From a virus (lineage: Duplodnaviria > Caudoviricetes), in IMG/VR virus record IMGVR_UViG_3300020045_008977, positions 1 through 36,421 of that record: 36,421 nt of DNA, one strand, 5' to 3'. The notes under the pieces are model-generated. The model saw nothing but the letters and a program-made list of their open reading frames with translations. It was not told the origin of the DNA and searched no databases. Position numbers and translations under genes: made by a program. Shown one piece after another: positions 13,590 to 32,647 of the stretch (the stretch's first letter is position 1; each line of letters begins with the position of its first letter).

Positions 13590-13922
13590 ATGGGCAAAAT
13601 AATTATACCAGTAGTCGAAATAAAAATAGGAAATGACCTATATCTCCAGATTAAAGATGTTTCTTTTATTTCGTTTAAAAAAGGGAGATTTGATTATAGA
13701 CCAGATTTTTCTTATCCTGATGAACCAGCTGAATGCGACTGGAAAAATGAAAACGCTAAACTGGTTATTAAGAAGTATGGGTACGTTCAAGCCCCATCGA
13801 CAAAAGGTATGATTAAAAAGTTAATCTTCGAAAAAGAATTTCCAGCAGATGACAGCTTTGTTTATGAATACTATGAACAAATTATATTACAGATAGAGGA
13901 GGATTTACAAAATGATCGTTGA
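13590..13922 (+). CDS. Hypothetical protein, first rightward gene
   Basis: Strong GAGGTGA RBS; 110 aa. Confidence 0.75.
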   Translation: MGKIIIPVVEIKIGNDLYLQIKDVSFISFKKGRFDYRPDFSYPDEPAECDWKNENAKLVIKKYGYVQAPSTKGMIKKLIFEKEFPADDSFVYEYYEQIILQIEEDLQNDR

Positions 13923-15919: not shown

Positions 15920-16963
15920 ATGGAAAACAAACTTGTAACAGTAATCAAAGAAAGTCATGTTGAAGAATCAACAGCATTGACTCTACAGAACGCATTCACC
16001 CCGTTTTTTAATCAGGCAAACGAATGGGTTGAAAAAGTTAAATCAATCGTTGTAACCGACGCTTCACAGGCTGAAGAAATCAGACAGGCAAGAGAAGCAA
16101 GATTGAGACTTAAAGAAATACGTATTCAGGCTGACAAAAAGCGTAAGGAGTTGAAAGAGGATTCTTTGAGATACGGAAAAGCCGTTCAGGGTGTTTATAA
16201 TGTAATTGAATACCTGATTGCACCGCTTGAAAAACATCTTGAAGATCAGGAGCGATTTGTTGAAATTCAGAGAGAGAAAATTAAAACTGAACTCCGAATA
16301 AAAAGAGAAAGCGAACTTGCACCATACTTTGAATTTATTCCTTCCGGTTTAAGTCTTGCTGATATTTCAGAAGATGATTTTCAAAAGATTCTTGCAGGCT
16401 CTAAAATACAATTGCAAATGAAAATTGACGCTGAAAAGAAAGCAGAAGCTGAACGCCTTGAAAGAGAAAAGATTGAAGCTGAAGAACGCGAAAAGATCAG
16501 ACTTGAAAACATTAAGTTAAAAAAAGAAGCTGAAGAGCGGGAAAAACTCGCAGAGATTGAAAGAAAGAAAGCTGAGAAAGAAAAGCTTGAACGGGACAAA
16601 AAAGAAATAGCCGAAAAAGAAGCAAGGGAAAAAGATCTCGCAGCCGAGAGAGAAAAAGCAGCGAAAGAGAAAGCTGAATCAGATAAAAAGCTCGCTGCAG
16701 AAATGGCAGAAAGAAAGCGTATCGAAGACGAGTTAAAAAAGAAAGAAGCTGAAGAACTCCGGATTAGAAAAGAAGCTGAAGAGAAAGAAAAAAAAGCGAA
16801 ACTCGCACCAGATAAAGAAAAACTGGTTGAATTTTCAAAGCTAATAGAATCAATTAAATTACCGGAAGTTTCAAATCCGGAAGCAAAAAAAGCAATCCTT
16901 GAATCTAAAGAAATGCTGAACAAAATAAGCATATTTCTTTTGAGACAAGCAGACACATTTTAA
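15920..16963 (+). CDS. Coiled-coil, E/K-rich protein
   Basis: 347 aa; long EK-rich helix; common in phage recombination modules. Confidence 0.75.
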   Translation: MENKLVTVIKESHVEESTALTLQNAFTPFFNQANEWVEKVKSIVVTDASQAEEIRQAREARLRLKEIRIQADKKRKELKEDSLRYGKAVQGVYNVIEYLIAPLEKHLEDQERFVEIQREKIKTELRIKRESELAPYFEFIPSGLSLADISEDDFQKILAGSKIQLQMKIDAEKKAEAERLEREKIEAEEREKIRLENIKLKKEAEEREKLAEIERKKAEKEKLERDKKEIAEKEAREKDLAAEREKAAKEKAESDKKLAAEMAERKRIEDELKKKEAEELRIRKEAEEKEKKAKLAPDKEKLVEFSKLIESIKLPEVSNPEAKKAILESKEMLNKISIFLLRQADTF

Positions 16964-17592: not shown

Positions 17593-18383
17593 TTGAAGAA
17601 AAAGTTATACCGAAGAGACCGGAAAGAAAGCGCATTATAAATTTATACCGTGACCATTACCAGAATTTCAAAGTTTACAATATCCCTCGCGCTCAGCTCG
17701 TAATAGCAGACATTCCCTATAATCTGGGAAACAAGGCTTATGCGAGTAATCCGGCATGGTATGAGGGGGGCGATAATAAAAATGGTGAAAGCAATCTTGC
17801 CGGAAAACATTTTTTCGACGGTGATAAAGATTTTAATATCAATGAGTTTTTCCACTTCTGTTCAAAGCTGATAAAACCGGAGCCAAAAGAAAAAGGACAA
17901 GCGGGCTGTATGATTATATTCTGCGAGTTTGAGCAGCAGTTTGCATTGATTGAAATTGCCCGGCGTTATGGTTTTATGAATTATATAAATCTTGTTTTCC
18001 GGAAAAACTTTTCAGCGCAAGTTTTAAAAGCAAATATGCGTATTGTCGGCAACTGTGAATATGGGATGTTATTTTATCGGGATAAATTGCCGAAATTTAA
18101 CAATAACGGTAAAATGATATTTAACTGTCTTGACTGGGAAAAAGACCCTGCCGGTAAAAAGTACCATCCGACTCAGAAGCCTGTTAGACTTTTAAGAAAC
18201 TTAATTCAGATATTTACTGACCCTGAAGATATAATTATTGACCCAGTAGCAGGGGGAGGGAGTTCTTTAATTGCCGCTTATTCCGAAGGTCGTTCTTCAT
18301 ATGGATTTGAAATTAAAAAGAAATTCTTTGATGCAGCGCAAGAGCGGATTCAGGAGTATAAAAGTCAAGGCACACTTTTTTAA
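17574..18383 (+). CDS. Orphan DNA methyltransferase (N6A/N4C, beta-class motif order)
   Basis: Motif IV variant ADIPY, HPTQKP, motif I DPVAGGGS, GFEI. Confidence 0.9.
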   Translation: MFDTEIVEEKVIPKRPERKRIINLYRDHYQNFKVYNIPRAQLVIADIPYNLGNKAYASNPAWYEGGDNKNGESNLAGKHFFDGDKDFNINEFFHFCSKLIKPEPKEKGQAGCMIIFCEFEQQFALIEIARRYGFMNYINLVFRKNFSAQVLKANMRIVGNCEYGMLFYRDKLPKFNNNGKMIFNCLDWEKDPAGKKYHPTQKPVRLLRNLIQIFTDPEDIIIDPVAGGGSSLIAAYSEGRSSYGFEIKKKFFDAAQERIQEYKSQGTLF

Positions 18384-18402
18384 TCTCACACTCAAAAAAA
18401 TG

Positions 18403-18431
18403 TTGACAGATAATAATTAGCATAGTAGAAA
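18403..18431 (+). promoter_or_regulatory. Sigma70-like promoter of replication operon
   Basis: TTGACA-17 nt-TAGAAA. Confidence 0.65.
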
Positions 18432-18443
18432 TGTAACCAGATT

Positions 18444-18560
18444 AGAGAATAAATGCTGAATGAACCGCGGCACTTATTCTTTGGAATAACATAAGCCTCG
18501 TATTTCTTGCCGGTTCAACTCTTAATAGAGAGTGCAAGGAGTACGGGGCTTTTTATTTTT
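18444..18560 (+). ncRNA. Structured leader/attenuator 1 (hairpin plus bulged terminator with loop-bulge pairing)
   Basis: 15-bp stem with loop AATGAACCG; 18-bp stem with bulge CGGTTCA; T-tract. Confidence 0.7.
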
Positions 18561-18572
18561 AAGGAGAATATT

Positions 18573-18797
18573 ATGACATGGTTGAACTTCATGAAACAAT
18601 ATGATAATTCAATAGATGAAAAGGTTGCCGATTATCTTTTATTTAATGAAACCGCGTTTCCTTTTTCTGATTTAAAAATTACAACATATCAATTAAGAAG
18701 CGCTATCCGTGCCAGAAAAAATAATATACAAAGATGTGAGATATGCGGACAGAATTTAAATTTTCATAAATTCAATTGTTTGGAGCGTTTTCAATGA
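18573..18797 (+). CDS. 74-aa hypothetical protein
   Basis: AAGGAG RBS before ATG 18573; LLFNETAFPF motif, C-term CxxC. Confidence 0.7.
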   Translation: MTWLNFMKQYDNSIDEKVADYLLFNETAFPFSDLKITTYQLRSAIRARKNNIQRCEICGQNLNFHKFNCLERFQ

Positions 18798-18954
18798 TCA
18801 TTAAACTTAAAAAGGTTAAAAATGGAGATTGTTTTGATTGTGATGTTAGAGTTCTATCTAGAATAGTAAACATTATTTTATCAAATAAGCTAAATAATTT
18901 ATGCATGAAACAAGAGTGTGCTAAACATAGATTTATTTATAAACAGGTGAAATA

Positions 18955-19620
18955 ATGCAATATTTTAAACATATGACGGGGATGAGAAACGATTCTAAAA
19001 TAAAACGGGTTATAAATAAATATGGAATTGAGGGGTATGGAATTTATTGTATAATTATTGAATCCATAGTTGAAAGTATAACTACTGAAAATCCTATTCC
19101 CGAACTACATGAAACGTGCGAAGATTTAGCAGAATTCTATAACGGTAATACTGCAAAGATAAATGAAATAGTTAATTTTATGATAAATCAAGGGCTTTTT
19201 GAATTAAATGAAATAAACGGAAGAGTTCTTTGTAATAAAGTTTATAAATTTCTTGAACAGTCTCAAACCAGGTCAGAGGAGATAAAAAGGCTTATTAGTA
19301 GCTTTAAAACTGTCTCAGACAAAAATAGACTGTCTCAAACAAATATGATAGAACAAGAACAAGAACAAGAACAAGAACAAGAACCCAGAAAAAGATTTAC
19401 ACCTCCCTCTACTAATGATGTTTCTTTATATATTCAGGAAAAGAATTATAGTGTTGATCCTGAATGGTTTATAAATTATTATACTTCTAAAAATTGGATG
19501 ATCGGTAAAAATAAAATGTCATCATGGAAGTCTGCAGTTTCAACATGTGAAAGAAATAATATAAAATGGAAAAAAGAAAATAAATTTAAAAATAATAATT
19601 TTGAATGGCCGGAGTTATAA
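18955..19620 (+). CDS. Replication initiator (DUF4373/Lin1244-like N-terminus)
   Basis: YFKH....RND.KI......YG.EGYGIY; QE linker; C-term FTPPS..DV..Y, F..YY.S.NW..GK.KM..WK.AV; precedes dnaB. Confidence 0.8.
   Translation: MQYFKHMTGMRNDSKIKRVINKYGIEGYGIYCIIIESIVESITTENPIPELHETCEDLAEFYNGNTAKINEIVNFMINQGLFELNEINGRVLCNKVYKFLEQSQTRSEEIKRLISSFKTVSDKNRLSQTNMIEQEQEQEQEQEPRKRFTPPSTNDVSLYIQEKNYSVDPEWFINYYTSKNWMIGKNKMSSWKSAVSTCERNNIKWKKENKFKNNNFEWPEL
19257..19384 (+). repeat. Iteron-like repeats and (GAACAA)5 inside initiator gene; candidate origin
   Basis: ACTGTCTCA(G/A)ACAAA at 19309 and 19329, variant at 19257; GAACAA x5 at 19351-19380. Confidence 0.5.
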
Positions 19621-20892
19621 ATGAGCAATTATAAAATTGACGAAACACAAATGGCTTTAATCAGTACGGCTATTTTAAACAAAGAAAGATTTTTTGATCT
19701 TATGGAATACCCGGAAGACATATTTACTTATCCAATGTCAAACGTTTATACAGCTATGAAAGAACTGCATAATAAAGACATGGAGCTTGATCTTTATTCA
19801 ATAACAAATTATCTGCAGCATAACGACGATAAATTTAATACTGACTTTCTATTATCAATTTACCAGATGCCGACAGTAACAAATTATAAATATCTGCTTG
19901 AAACAGCTTTACATGTCCGGAATAAAAAAATTGTGGGGGATTATGCGACCGACCTTTTTAACCGCTGTCAATCCCGGGATCTGGAATATAAAGATTTTCT
20001 TGATCAGATTATAAATATTAAAGATTTAATCTCTGAACAATTCAATAAAAAATATGTTCCTCTCCGGGATGAGATGTATTCTTTACATACTGATAACGGG
20101 TTAAGATATTATAAAACCGGGATTGATAAGCTTGATGAAAAAATAGTGGGTTTGTTCCAGGGACGTTTTATAATAATTGCAGCAAGTCCAGGCGCCGGGA
20201 AAAGTACTCTTGTACGTCAAATCAGTTATAAAAAAAGATTCCTTTTCTTTACTCTTGAAATGACTAAGCAAGAGATTTTAGCTAATATTTTAATGCAGCA
20301 TTCCGGAATAGAATCGTGGAGAATTTTAGCTGATAAATTAACCGATAACGAAAAAGATATTATTGTCAAAGTTAAGAAAAATCTTGAACAGATAATGCAC
20401 TTCACTATTATAGATGATGTTTATGATATAACTCAAATTATAAATATAACAAAGTCAAAGCATAAAAAAGGAGAGATTGATGGGATGATTCTTGATTATA
20501 TCCAACTCTGCGGAGGGGCTAAAGGTGAAAATCAGAATATTAAAATTGGTTATGTTTCCCGGCAATTGAAAATGCTTGCTCAACAATTAAAGATTCCAGT
20601 TGTAGGATTGAGCCAGTTTTCACGGGGGAGCGATAAAGACGACCGGCAGCCGGAATTAACCGATCTTAGAGATAGCGGATCTCTTGAACAAGATGCGAAC
20701 TGTGTTATATTTCTGCATACGAAAAAAGAAGAGCGGTTAAAGGATGTATGCCCGATCAGTTTGATTGTTGCTAAAAATAGAGGAGGGCGCGTAGGGATAA
20801 TAAAAGATTTAGTATTTAAAAAGTCATTAAGTATGATTACAGATTTAGAACATGAAACGAATTTTGACAAAATGGGGTATATTCATGATTAA
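19621..20892 (+). CDS. dnaB: Replicative DNA helicase (DnaB family)
   Basis: AASPGAGKS, FTLEM, ILDYIQL, LSQFSR, DLRDSGSLEQDA, AKNRGG. Confidence 0.95.
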   Translation: MSNYKIDETQMALISTAILNKERFFDLMEYPEDIFTYPMSNVYTAMKELHNKDMELDLYSITNYLQHNDDKFNTDFLLSIYQMPTVTNYKYLLETALHVRNKKIVGDYATDLFNRCQSRDLEYKDFLDQIINIKDLISEQFNKKYVPLRDEMYSLHTDNGLRYYKTGIDKLDEKIVGLFQGRFIIIAASPGAGKSTLVRQISYKKRFLFFTLEMTKQEILANILMQHSGIESWRILADKLTDNEKDIIVKVKKNLEQIMHFTIIDDVYDITQIINITKSKHKKGEIDGMILDYIQLCGGAKGENQNIKIGYVSRQLKMLAQQLKIPVVGLSQFSRGSDKDDRQPELTDLRDSGSLEQDANCVIFLHTKKEERLKDVCPISLIVAKNRGGRVGIIKDLVFKKSLSMITDLEHETNFDKMGYIHD

Positions 20893-22661: not shown

Positions 22662-22898
22662 ATGCAAAAATCGAATTTTAATTTTATTTCAAATTTGGGA
22701 ATATCTATTCAGGGTGTAGAATATAAATTCAATTCATTTTCCATTAGAGCTTCAAAACATGCTTATCTTCCTAAACAAAGATTTTATAATAGATTCAATA
22801 AATATAAAGAAAGAAAAGTTCAGTATCAATTATGCTTTTTAAAAAGATTTTCAATAGCTTTGGTTACGTCATTCGGCTTTAAAGATGAGTGCTTCTAA
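22662..22898 (+). CDS. Hypothetical protein
   Basis: ORF with AAGGA RBS; TAATG coupling downstream. Confidence 0.45.
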   Translation: MQKSNFNFISNLGISIQGVEYKFNSFSIRASKHAYLPKQRFYNRFNKYKERKVQYQLCFLKRFSIALVTSFGFKDECF

Positions 22899-23042
22899 TG
22901 AAAGTAATCCCTAACGAGGTATGGTGCAGAACTTGCGGCTATTATCGTCCCGTAAAACAGATGTCAATCGGGAAGCAATCAGAATTTAATGACAGGATAA
23001 ATTATAAACTACCTGAAAATTTAAACGCACCGAAAAAAGTTA

Positions 23043-23071
23043 TTGACACCGGAGTTAATATTTTGTAGTGT
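23043..23071 (+). promoter_or_regulatory. Sigma70-like promoter
   Basis: TTGACA-17 nt-TAGTGT. Confidence 0.65.
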
Positions 23072-26714: not shown

Positions 26715-26833
26715 TATAATAGGAGTAATTATCTGCATCGGGTTTATGCTCTTTGCTTATGCTGCTGGATATAAAGATGGCAGAGAGTCCGAAAAGAAAG
26801 AATCATATAAACAATGCCGTGAGGAGTCTGAAA

Positions 26834-27052
26834 ATGATCTGTAAAAAGTGCGGGCATGTAATGAATAAAATCAACGACCGAGAAGACGGCGTTATAATCC
26901 GGATCCGGCATAAGTGCGGTAATATGGATTGCCGACATACTGAAGTAATCGAGCGCACTATTTACCATGAGATTAAGGCTGAACTTTCAGAAGCTTTGAG
27001 AATTAAGCCGGGGATTAAAAATGATGTTGAGTTTTTGATGGAAAGGTTGTGA
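26834..27052 (+). CDS. Zinc-ribbon protein
   Basis: GAGGAG RBS; MICKKCG...KCGNMDC; stop codon lies in repeat site 1. Confidence 0.65.
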   Translation: MICKKCGHVMNKINDREDGVIIRIRHKCGNMDCRHTEVIERTIYHEIKAELSEALRIKPGIKNDVEFLMERL

Positions 27053-27086
27053 CATAATCGGGCTTATGTCATTAAAGGAGGAATAG

Positions 27087-27392
27087 ATGGAAATAATAGA
27101 GTCAAGTAGAAGAAAAGCTAATAAAGAACATCAGTGTGATTTTTGCAAAGGCTATATTAAAGTCGGTGAAGAGTATGATTTCCAAAAGAATATATCTGAT
27201 GGAACAATATATCCATGGAAGACTCATGTGAAATGTTCAGAGGTTGCAAATGAATTAAACATGTATGACAATTGTGACGAAGGATTAACTCAAGATGATT
27301 TTGAGGAATTTATAAGTGAAGCTATTTATGAGTTAAGTTTAGAACAAAAAGTAAACATGGTTCATGCTTTAAAATGTGAAGTGACAAAATAA
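27087..27392 (+). CDS. Cassette gene 1: zinc-binding hypothetical protein
   Basis: RKANKEHQCDFC..YIKVGEEY...H..C; AAGGAGG RBS. Confidence 0.8.
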   Translation: MEIIESSRRKANKEHQCDFCKGYIKVGEEYDFQKNISDGTIYPWKTHVKCSEVANELNMYDNCDEGLTQDDFEEFISEAIYELSLEQKVNMVHALKCEVTK

Positions 27393-27421
27393 AGGGTTAT
27401 GCTATTAAAGGAGAATTAAAT

Positions 27422-27634
27422 ATGCACTTAGGTGAAGCAATTACAAGAATGGAACAAAATCCCGGACTTAAAATGACTATGCCGAGACATTATAGAAGTT
27501 GGCAATATAATTATTATGATGCTGAAAAGAAAATGTTTTGTATTGAAGATGGAACTGAATGGGATATAGATAAAAGTATTGCTTGGAATGAAATGGACGG
27601 ATATGAAGATTATAATGAGAACAAAGGACAGTAA
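27422..27634 (+). CDS. Cassette gene 2: hypothetical protein
   Basis: AAGGAG RBS; 70 aa. Confidence 0.75.
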   Translation: MHLGEAITRMEQNPGLKMTMPRHYRSWQYNYYDAEKKMFCIEDGTEWDIDKSIAWNEMDGYEDYNENKGQ

Positions 27635-27664
27635 CAAAATAAACCTTATGCCATGGAGGATGAT

Positions 27665-27919
27665 ATGAGCTTTATATATAAGTTAACTAAACAAATCGAA
27701 TCTGAGCCATCACCCGATTTATGTAAATGTGCATGGTGTGGAAAATATTTTAAAGTTAAAGACCTGTCCACTGAAGAGGAGGGAGATTGGGAAACCGGAT
27801 ATTATAATGTTCATATTTGTCCGGTATGTCCTGAAGGTGGTTGTATAGATGTTTATGACTATTCTAAAAAACAATTTAAGAAACTTATTCAGTGGGAAAA
27901 AAGAATACTGACAAAATAA
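27665..27919 (+). CDS. Cassette gene 3: CxxC/CxxC protein
   Basis: GGAGG RBS before ATG 27665; CAWC, CPVC. Confidence 0.75.
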   Translation: MSFIYKLTKQIESEPSPDLCKCAWCGKYFKVKDLSTEEEGDWETGYYNVHICPVCPEGGCIDVYDYSKKQFKKLIQWEKRILTK

Positions 27920-27943
27920 CAATTATGCTATATGGAGGATGAG

Positions 27944-28165
27944 ATGAAAATAATGATAATAAAATGTAAGGAAATAGATGATCAGCACCGGCACTCATTA
28001 GGGTTGCAAGCATCTGATAGAACATTATGTGGAATAGCATTTGAGGGAATGGGGGGAGGATTTAGTTCGCAGGCAATAATAAAAAACGGAACTATAAATT
28101 GTCCTGATTGTATAGACATTATAGACTTTTGTAAAAATATATCAGAAAAAAATATAAAAAGGTAA
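27944..28165 (+). CDS. Cassette gene 4: H...TLCG...CPDC protein
   Basis: GGAGG RBS before ATG 27944. Confidence 0.75.
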   Translation: MKIMIIKCKEIDDQHRHSLGLQASDRTLCGIAFEGMGGGFSSQAIIKNGTINCPDCIDIIDFCKNISEKNIKR

Positions 28166-28201
28166 TACTGACAAAATAAATAATTATGCAAGGATGATTA
28201 T

Positions 28202-28531
28202 ATGAATAAATTTAAAAAGATTTATCTTACACAGAGTGAATACATAGAAAAAATATTTTGTCAAAATGAAAATTGTTCTGAATGCTTCGGAACAGATCAT
28301 AACGGAGAACCAAACGGATATGGATGTGAATCCGCTGAAAGATTTGTTGATGAAACTGAAATTTATGAAGAAATAAATATGGGAGATGAAAGACAATTTG
28401 TCGCAAAAGACGAATCAGATAAAATAATTTTAGAACTCGAACAGCAAAAAGCGGAGTTGATAGAGGAATTGGAAAGACTCATTGAGTTAGAAAAGCTTGA
28501 TTGTAATCTTATATTGGATGATTATAAATAA
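28202..28531 (+). CDS. Cassette gene 5: acidic Cys-containing protein
   Basis: AAGGA RBS; CQNENCSEC...YGCE. Confidence 0.75.
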   Translation: MNKFKKIYLTQSEYIEKIFCQNENCSECFGTDHNGEPNGYGCESAERFVDETEIYEEINMGDERQFVAKDESDKIILELEQQKAELIEELERLIELEKLDCNLILDDYK

Positions 28532-28557
28532 AGACATAATGATTACTATGTCACTAT

Positions 28558-28586
28558 AAAAAAGACTCCCCGGTTAAGGGGAGCTT
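28558..28586 (-). terminator. Terminator at convergence of plus and minus arms
   Basis: CTCCCC-GGTTAA-GGGGAG stem with adjacent A-tract (U-tract on minus strand). Confidence 0.65.
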
Positions 28587-32226: not shown

Positions 32227-32647
32227 AATGCCAATACCTTTCTTTATTCATTATCTGTTTTAATATATAATTAGACCCATCATAATAAAGTTTTAAAATA
32301 TATCTATGCGCTGCGCTTCCGCTTGTTCCGTACCATCCGTTTTTTAAAGCGTTAAATGTAGGCGCTGTATTTGTCATTTCTGCAACTGCATAAGAACCGG
32401 AAACATAAGTTTTTACATAGCAAATTCCAGTTGAAGGAGTTCCCGTAATAGTTTCATTTGCATTGAAATAATATAAATCACCGTCAATTTCAACCGTAGA
32501 GCTTAATTGAATAACCGGCTTAACGGTCGTTGTCATTTCCGAAAAATTAACGGCATAAAAACCCTTTTGTAAATATGTTTCATTTGTTATATAATTATCA
32601 AGTGTAGTTTCGCCAAAATAAAAATTGCTTATTAAATTTATTGTCAT
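32216..32647 (-). CDS. N-terminal half of split tail-protein paralogue
   Basis: Shares YF.A.ETI.GTP and NGWYGT.GS..HRY with the 32644-33318 product. Confidence 0.75.
   Translation of the reverse strand: MTINLISNFYFGETTLDNYITNETYLQKGFYAVNFSEMTTTVKPVIQLSSTVEIDGDLYYFNANETITGTPSTGICYVKTYVSGSYAVAEMTNTAPTFNALKNGWYGTSGSAAHRYILKLYYDGSNYILKQIMNKERYWHYEI

Follow-up and report, generated by a model that had tools for sequence, protein, structure and literature searches.

Six short sites of one design, all facing the same way, separate five small genes at positions 27047 to 28556 of the tailed-phage genome IMGVR_UViG_3300020045_008977 (IMG/VR, Caudoviricetes; positions 1 to 36,421, hereafter the window), and sites of the same design bound non-homologous genes in four further contigs. 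Several features are directly observed: the anatomy of the sites, their attachment to a ribosome-binding site (RBS) and to promoterless cargo, the sharing of re-assorted half-sites among phages, cargo that is not homologous from unit to unit, and the lack of a corresponding enzyme in the phage itself. Site-specific recombination in some form, whether by a single enzyme supplied in trans or by the XerC/XerD pair of the host, probably underlies the array. There is an even chance that the sites are, specifically, core sites for one Xer-family tyrosine recombinase acting in trans and swapping genes among phages of the same host.

The array in the window

A sequence-only reading of this DNA had described six same-orientation sites, and both their coordinates and their letters are as claimed (Table 1). 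They follow the core pattern ACAWAA-N6/7-YTATG in an 11-(6/7)-11 layout and delimit units of 332, 250, 277, 260, and 363 bp, so that the claimed range of 250-363 bp holds. Upstream genes were said to stop in or near the sites and do so: within the left arm of sites 1, 3, and 6, on the first three spacer bases of sites 2 and 4, and 3 nt before site 5. Sites 1-5 then lead straight into a Shine-Dalgarno sequence, again as described.

A position weight matrix (PWM) built from the six sites ranks all six at the top of the window. When each is left out in turn, sites 1, 2, 4, and 5 still outscore every non-array position, site 3 falls just under one outside match, and site 6 is not recovered. The core pattern matches the plus strand of the window six times, every time within the array, and in 300 Markov-3 simulations it occurred 0.44 times per window and never more than twice in 1.6 kb. 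The remark that the motif was not spotted elsewhere in the window holds for the plus strand but not for the minus strand, which carries a weaker match at 32548-32575, inside a coding gene and at chance level. Because the core pattern was derived from the window sites themselves, the independent evidence lies in its recurrence in other contigs.

Table 1. Genes, sites, and terminal hairpin of the array, in window coordinates
Feature	Position	Strand	Remarks
Last gene before array	26831..27052	+	stop falls in site 1
Site 1	27047..27074	+	TTGTGACATAA-TCGGGC-TTATGTCATTA; perfect 8-bp inverted repeat; contains stop of upstream gene
Cargo gene 1	27087..27392	+	101 aa with Cys, PHROG 7314 (function unknown); C-terminal end and stop in site 2
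Site 2	27379..27407	+	7-bp spacer TAAAGGG
Cargo gene 2	27422..27634	+	70 aa, no Pfam or PHROG family
Site 3	27629..27656	+	spacer TAAACC, common to four sites in three other arrays
Cargo gene 3	27665..27919	+	84 aa, CxxC/CPxC protein, PHROG 13332; ends KRILTK in site 4
Site 4	27906..27933	+	spacer TAACAA
Cargo gene 4	27944..28165	+	73 aa, PHROG 15583 (unknown function)
Site 5	28166..28194	+	7-bp spacer TAAATAA; right arm shortened against RBS
Cargo gene 5	28202..28531	+	109 aa, no family
Site 6	28529..28556	+	terminal, most diverged; no RBS after it
GC-rich hairpin	28565..28584	.	predicted terminator; directly follows site 6; early (+) and late (-) transcription converge

The same sites in other phages

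Pattern scans of viral sequences returned 41 and 31 loci, and those of metagenomes and genomes 32 and 17, mostly single matches, several of which proved on inspection to lie inside genes. Four further independent arrays nonetheless emerged, with the same sites around non-homologous genes. One, in G001, has six sites at 17662-20432 of 73.6 kb and ends at a hairpin, with nothing comparable elsewhere in that record; a second (L108) has three sites plus another whose spacer is shortened, a third (L118/L121/L131) three sites, and a fourth (L101) two, its contig ending within the array. G001 represents a different phage type, with five protein matches to the window that are mostly weak or partial, and L101, L108, and L118 are short contigs that look phage-like by gene content. 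The two viral scans (41 and 31 loci) yielded only the G001 contig as a further array, another pattern scan returned 0 loci, a scan giving 122 loci (30 of 64 parts scanned) contained no new RBS-linked array, and cultured phages and plasmids held only chance-level matches to site 4. The shortened site at L108:5139-5165 consists of a left arm and TAA that pass directly into an RBS-linked, degenerate right arm, which looks like loss of the variable half of the spacer.

Across the 20 sites the inner ACA(A/T)AA and TTATG are nearly invariant and the outer arm bases vary; the right inner end is TTAT in 18, and the left inner end is AAAA in 17 and ATAA in three. Spacers measure 6 bp in 17 of the 20 and 7 bp in the remainder. 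This arrangement, in which 11-bp arms flank a central region and the whole is partly dyad-symmetric, corresponds to the layout of dif and pdif sites, and near-symmetric arms about a 6-8-bp spacer likewise correspond to a site for a single tyrosine recombinase. An RBS directly follows 18 of the 20, the two exceptions being the terminal sites of the two long genomes, the window and G001, after which there is no gene. The upstream gene ends on the spacer TAA at 8/20 sites, often as Leu-Thr-Lys (LTK), and TAA begins 14 of the 17 spacers other than the first of an array.

Identical blocks recur on either side of the spacer, around different genes. Right arm, RBS, and ATG are identical over 25-27 nt in three arrays and precede different genes (the right arm and RBS block of site 4 is found in L101 and L118), and identical left blocks of 11-20 nt occur across phages after different genes (the left 20 nt of site 4 being identical in G001); cross-phage identity reaches 42 nt, between site 4 and the first site of L101. 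In Mantel tests the left arm, the 3' half of the spacer, and the right arm were uncorrelated (r -0.08, -0.02, and 0.04), whereas a control within the right half was correlated (r 0.26, p 0.004), a result that, for 20 short sites only, is suggestive of halves that vary independently. The nearest half-site was confined to the same array for 1/20 left halves and 2/20 right halves, which argues against local duplication. Spacers also recur in order, TAAACC before TAACAA in three phages and GACCAG before TAAACC in two, around different genes; the 4 matching pairs compare with 1.3-1.6 expected (p about 0.045, post hoc). Neighboring spacers differ in 14/15 slots.

The cargo carried between the sites includes a DNA methyltransferase (G001), YopX, and small unknown proteins, and one unit of G001 holds several genes; among 15 bounded cargo units tblastn gave zero cross-matches. 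The five genes of the window, described earlier as unrelated, are indeed unrelated to each other, but three have PHROG relatives of unknown function. Two homologues of cargo gene 1 run on beyond the point at which it stops, and 0/150 homologues of cargo gene 3 end in LTK, so that the site sequence appears to have been grafted onto the 3' ends of the cargo; the KRILTK ending of cargo gene 3 is the same as that on the unrelated methyltransferase of G001. Homologues of cargo gene 3 are 32-55% identical to it over most of their length, and at 24 of their loci the best site score was at most 12.6, whereas array sites score 17.7-30.5; members of this family thus occur without sites, an observation that is not a test of mobility.

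Relatives and genomic context

The window is a circularly permuted siphophage genome of 36 kb, broken inside the tape-measure gene; given the small gap in that gene it is rated as near-complete. It encodes terminase, an SPP1-type portal, RecT, a YqaJ exonuclease, DnaB, and a methylase, and its relatives have genomes of 35-37 kb. The array forms the 3' end of the early (+) operon, at the hairpin on which the late (-) genes converge. The description of a phage without a recombinase is borne out, as neither a tyrosine nor a serine recombinase was found in a Pfam scan of 66 window open reading frames and tblastn of the window with two recombinases as queries gave no match; tyrosine recombinases were not found in the related viral records either (0/21).

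Three of these 21 records have a single pattern match, and the site cluster is absent from all 11 related siphophages that were fetched. The closest complete relative (G002, head protein 77% identical) has at the same locus a similar terminal hairpin and other small abutting genes, and no sites. Absence from relatives argues that the array was acquired and is no regulatory element common to the family. The proposed check of gene presence and absence thus gave a closest relative free of both the sites and these genes, but no close relative with the array; none was found when sought through the gene adjoining it. The homologue of the first early gene of the window (13590-13922) lies near the far end of the G002 early operon (16258-16545), a rearrangement between these close relatives.

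Alternative explanations

The sequence-only reading held that host XerC/XerD act on mimics of the chromosomal dif site. On the bottom strand the conserved arm would then be XerD-like and the variable arm XerC-like, and exchange would proceed as at pdif sites or by one strand pair followed by replication, the mode described for VGJphi (PMC4246890, PMC5357621). This is unlikely as the data stand, although several features speak for it: the 11-6-11 layout with AA/TTATG inner ends, a reversed left arm that matches Leptospira XerD arms at up to 10/11 positions, the predominance of TAA at the start of non-first spacers, which would be expected if only bases beside one arm need match, and the fact that a host enzyme would account for sharing between unrelated phages. 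Both arms, however, resemble XerD arms (mean identity 6.8-8.0/11 to five of them, best in Leptospira and Elusimicrobium) more than XerC arms (4.0-6.0/11 to four), so that in this 5 + 4 arm panel no pairing of one XerC-type with one XerD-type arm is seen, and the left-arm motifs GACATAA and GACAAAA are in no predicted dif listed in supplement 2 of Kono et al. 2011 (PMC3025954). One-strand exchange of the VGJphi type would explain the conserved TAA, but it would also predict a link between the 3' half of the spacer and the right arm, and none is seen. Nor did a search for a host dif bring a consistent match among 352 genomes of two phyla: 251 Bacteroidota and 101 Elusimicrobiota genomes, with Spirochaetota outside the sample, gave 8/251 (below control) and 9/101 (control 1) hits, and the 12 stretches that were inspected differed among themselves, lay frequently within genes, and included no array. 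A dif-like palindrome with spacer TGTACA in one genome of the Elusimicrobiota sample (G360, L254:2981-3008), embedded in a larger intergenic inverted repeat, could be either a dif or an operator.

Two further accounts dispense with site-specific recombination, and each has a small probability, clearly below that of dif mimicry. The sites could be operators of a regulator or translation-start elements, akin to stoperators or to the extended start-associated sequences (ESAS) of mycobacteriophages, since imperfect palindromes adjoin the RBS at nearly all sites and ESAS are likewise inverted repeats of variable spacer tied to start sites (PMC3203893). Yet start-associated sequences (SAS) and ESAS are spread genome-wide whereas the present sites occupy successive gene junctions of a single region in both long genomes, and a regulatory element fits poorly with terminal sites that precede no gene, with absence from the 11 fetched relatives, with near-identical sites in unrelated phages, and with half-sites that are re-assorted and overwrite C-termini. 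Equally doubtful is the idea that the repeats are short homology linkers for annealing by the phage RecT and YqaJ proteins, in the manner of promoter early stem-loop (PeSL) elements, the dyad being a promoter or operator relic. The phage does encode both proteins, cross-phage identity is as long as noted above, PeSL cassettes shuffle ORFans in T4-type phages (PMC2839356), and the grafting of site and RBS blocks onto new genes needs some such route under any model. What is conserved, however, is a dyad of fixed geometry and not long homology, and PeSLs span about 100 bp and contain both a promoter and a terminator (PMC2839356), whereas the array sites lack promoter features.

Other identities were tried and rejected. 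The motif overlaps the sigma-70 consensus, but TTGACA is present in 1/20 array sites against 53/93 singleton matches, a -10 match in 2/20 against 45/93, a 7-bp spacer in 3/20 against 63/93, and an RBS directly after the site in 18/20 against 3/93. Many singleton matches in viral contigs look promoter-like, and the array region itself has 22 promoter-like matches, compared with 16.7 +/- 4.2 after shuffling. A recurring viral element, TTGACATAA-N6-TTATGTCATATACT (L268, L270, L320, L325, L337, and others), has conserved flanks and is distinct from the array sites; it is a TTGACA-17-TATACT promoter whose spacer is covered by a perfect palindrome, which is probably an operator. An attC site or structured RNA was dismissed on the folding of internal sites (-0.2 to -0.7 kcal/mol, no better than shuffles) and the lack of any Rfam match, a PeSL on the lack of a sigma-70 promoter and terminator stem-loop in each repeat, and SAS, ESAS, or stoperators on the single cluster in the window and in G001 and its absence from 11 relatives.

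Candidate enzymes and host

For a single recombinase acting in trans, a candidate is a 276-aa tyrosine recombinase encoded in the phage early region of G001 (G001:C1:54087-54917; L133:1465-2295, minus strand), which keeps the catalytic motifs. Its nearest Atlas cluster is 56% viral, and its best plasmid matches are enzymes of Brachyspira plasmids. On one of these, pBHWA1 of Brachyspira hyodysenteriae, an unannotated 11-6-11 near-palindrome, TATATACAAAA-GATAAG-TTATGTATATA (L411:26696-26723), lies about 55 nt upstream of the tyrosine recombinase gene and has the ACAAAA/TTATG inner asymmetry of the array sites; it fits the core pattern as already set from the arrays. The plasmid holds 3 pattern matches against 0.94 expected and 1 near-palindrome against 0.007 expected, and this near-palindrome is likely the resolution site of the plasmid recombinase. 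On the Picosynechococcus plasmid pAQ4 (L414), a near-palindrome GTAACAAAA-N6-TTTAGTTAC stands just upstream of the recombinase gene at 666, with a left-arm end common to site 3 of the window.

Leads to the host come from phage-borne genes. An outer-membrane phospholipase A in G001 (G001:C1:6000-6764, L151; 69 family proteins found, itself included) points to a diderm host, and ferredoxin and NrdD-like genes point to an anaerobic one. The NrdD-like gene of the window (22889-23068, plus strand) encodes a 59-aa peptide that matches solely the C-terminal end of the anaerobic ribonucleotide reductase NrdD and has homologues in G001, L118, and six related siphophages. The recombinase matches point weakly to Spirochaetota. 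On these weak leads the host is possibly an anaerobic spirochaete; protein searches supplied no usable host names except one Ignavibacteria metagenome-assembled genome (MAG).

Proposed mechanism and its implications

Under a single recombinase in trans, four copies of the enzyme would bind both arms of paired sites and cut at the spacer edges. The enzyme might be the only Xer protein of the host or a short recombinase from a plasmid or phage in the same cell, for example that of G001. Two co-infecting genomes would recombine at sites whose spacers agree, and crossing over again at the next pair of agreeing spacers would trade the cargo between them, as proposed for the xrs sites of Acinetobacter plasmids; differing neighboring spacers would limit simple excision, and the cargo genes would be expressed as part of the early transcript of the phage. 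Every enzymatic step here is inferred. Spacer-matched exchange accounts for the recurring spacer classes, the differing neighbors, and the unlinked halves, and it is the best-fitting model on that ground. The earlier proposal of a cassette array is supported by shared sites, re-assorted half-sites, and a site-free relative, and its identification of the sites as XerC/XerD dif sites is only partly supported.

Several observations weigh against a single trans-acting enzyme. Neither a circle nor an empty site nor an insertion or deletion within the same array was observed, homologous cargo was not found in a second array, and the 17 bacterial-genome loci held no array. Three of 20 spacers are 7 bp long and many are unique, and the absent correlation between site halves is weak evidence. 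The G001 recombinase has no adjoining site and lies about 34 kb from the G001 array. An advance prediction from pBHWA1 failed for the next-closest enzyme, that of an Entomospira plasmid, no such site being present in 27.7 kb, nor was one found near four more distant enzymes (0/5 records). The head protein of one relative is recorded from the Ignavibacteria MAG, a host lead that differs from the spirochaete one.

More broadly, and more tentatively, unrelated tailed phages of one host lineage may share genes packaged with a site and RBS and swap them by spacer-matched double crossover, with the recombinase encoded by some of the phages, by the host, or by a plasmid; cassettes would arise by grafting a 5' module (arm, RBS, and ATG) and a 3' module (arm and stop) onto ordinary phage genes. 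The mosaicism of phages is usually ascribed to homologous or illegitimate recombination. A spacer-coded, site-specific route common to unrelated phages, if real, would provide a defined mechanism by which small accessory genes turn over, and identical RBS and stop modules on unrelated genes bear on how gene cassettes first form. The 28-bp sites, two recurring spacer classes, and one candidate enzyme provide handles for testing.

Comparison with known systems

The array was first called integron-like, and the likeness extends to co-oriented, mostly promoterless single-gene units but not to an attC fold, IntI, or attI. Clusters of attC sites lacking integron-integrases (CALINs) in virulent phages (PMC9892861) similarly comprise co-oriented genes bounded by sites, in tailed phages that lack a recombinase of their own, and their cargo can include DNA methyltransferases, as in G001; the present sites, by contrast, are 28-bp duplex-type cores, unfolded where internal, with no GTTRRRY boxes by inspection, and that paper mentions neither Xer nor dif. 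Similar in layout are the pdif or xrs sites of Acinetobacter Rep_3 plasmids (PMC11705084), where accessory genes likewise lie between several 11-6-11 sites, the central regions can be grouped by compatibility, and exchange through cointegration and resolution of co-resident replicons has been proposed; excision was undetected there, and cointegrates arose where the central regions of two sites were closely related. The phage sites differ in that all face one direction, each has an RBS joined to it, they are carried by a tailed phage, and both arms look XerD-like.

Integrative mobile elements exploiting Xer (IMEX), such as the phages CTXphi, VGJphi, and TLCphi (PMC4246890, PMC5357621), resemble the window phage in lacking an integrase, carrying dif-like sites, and, as proposed here, borrowing a tyrosine recombinase; there, however, one attP places the whole genome at the host dif, whereas in the window six sites divide up accessory genes and there is no sign of integration. 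PeSL elements (PMC2839356) also sit between small ORFans and shuffle modules in lytic phages, but as promoter and stem-loop units of about 100 bp in one phage group, against 28-bp promoterless dyads across unrelated types. SAS and ESAS of cluster K mycobacteriophages (PMC3203893) share an imperfect inverted repeat directly upstream of the RBS; ESAS have 17-bp arms and 4-13-bp spacers and are dispersed beside the same gene families, whereas the present sites have 6- or 7-bp spacers and are clustered around changing genes.

The literature searched, with subscription journals mostly outside it, contained no description of a Xer-type cassette array in tailed phages, in agreement with the novelty first suggested. 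Already known are attC arrays in integrase-less virulent phages (PMC9892861) and shuffling at PeSL repeats (PMC2839356); what this case adds is that near-identical half-sites and spacer pairs are common to unrelated phage types.
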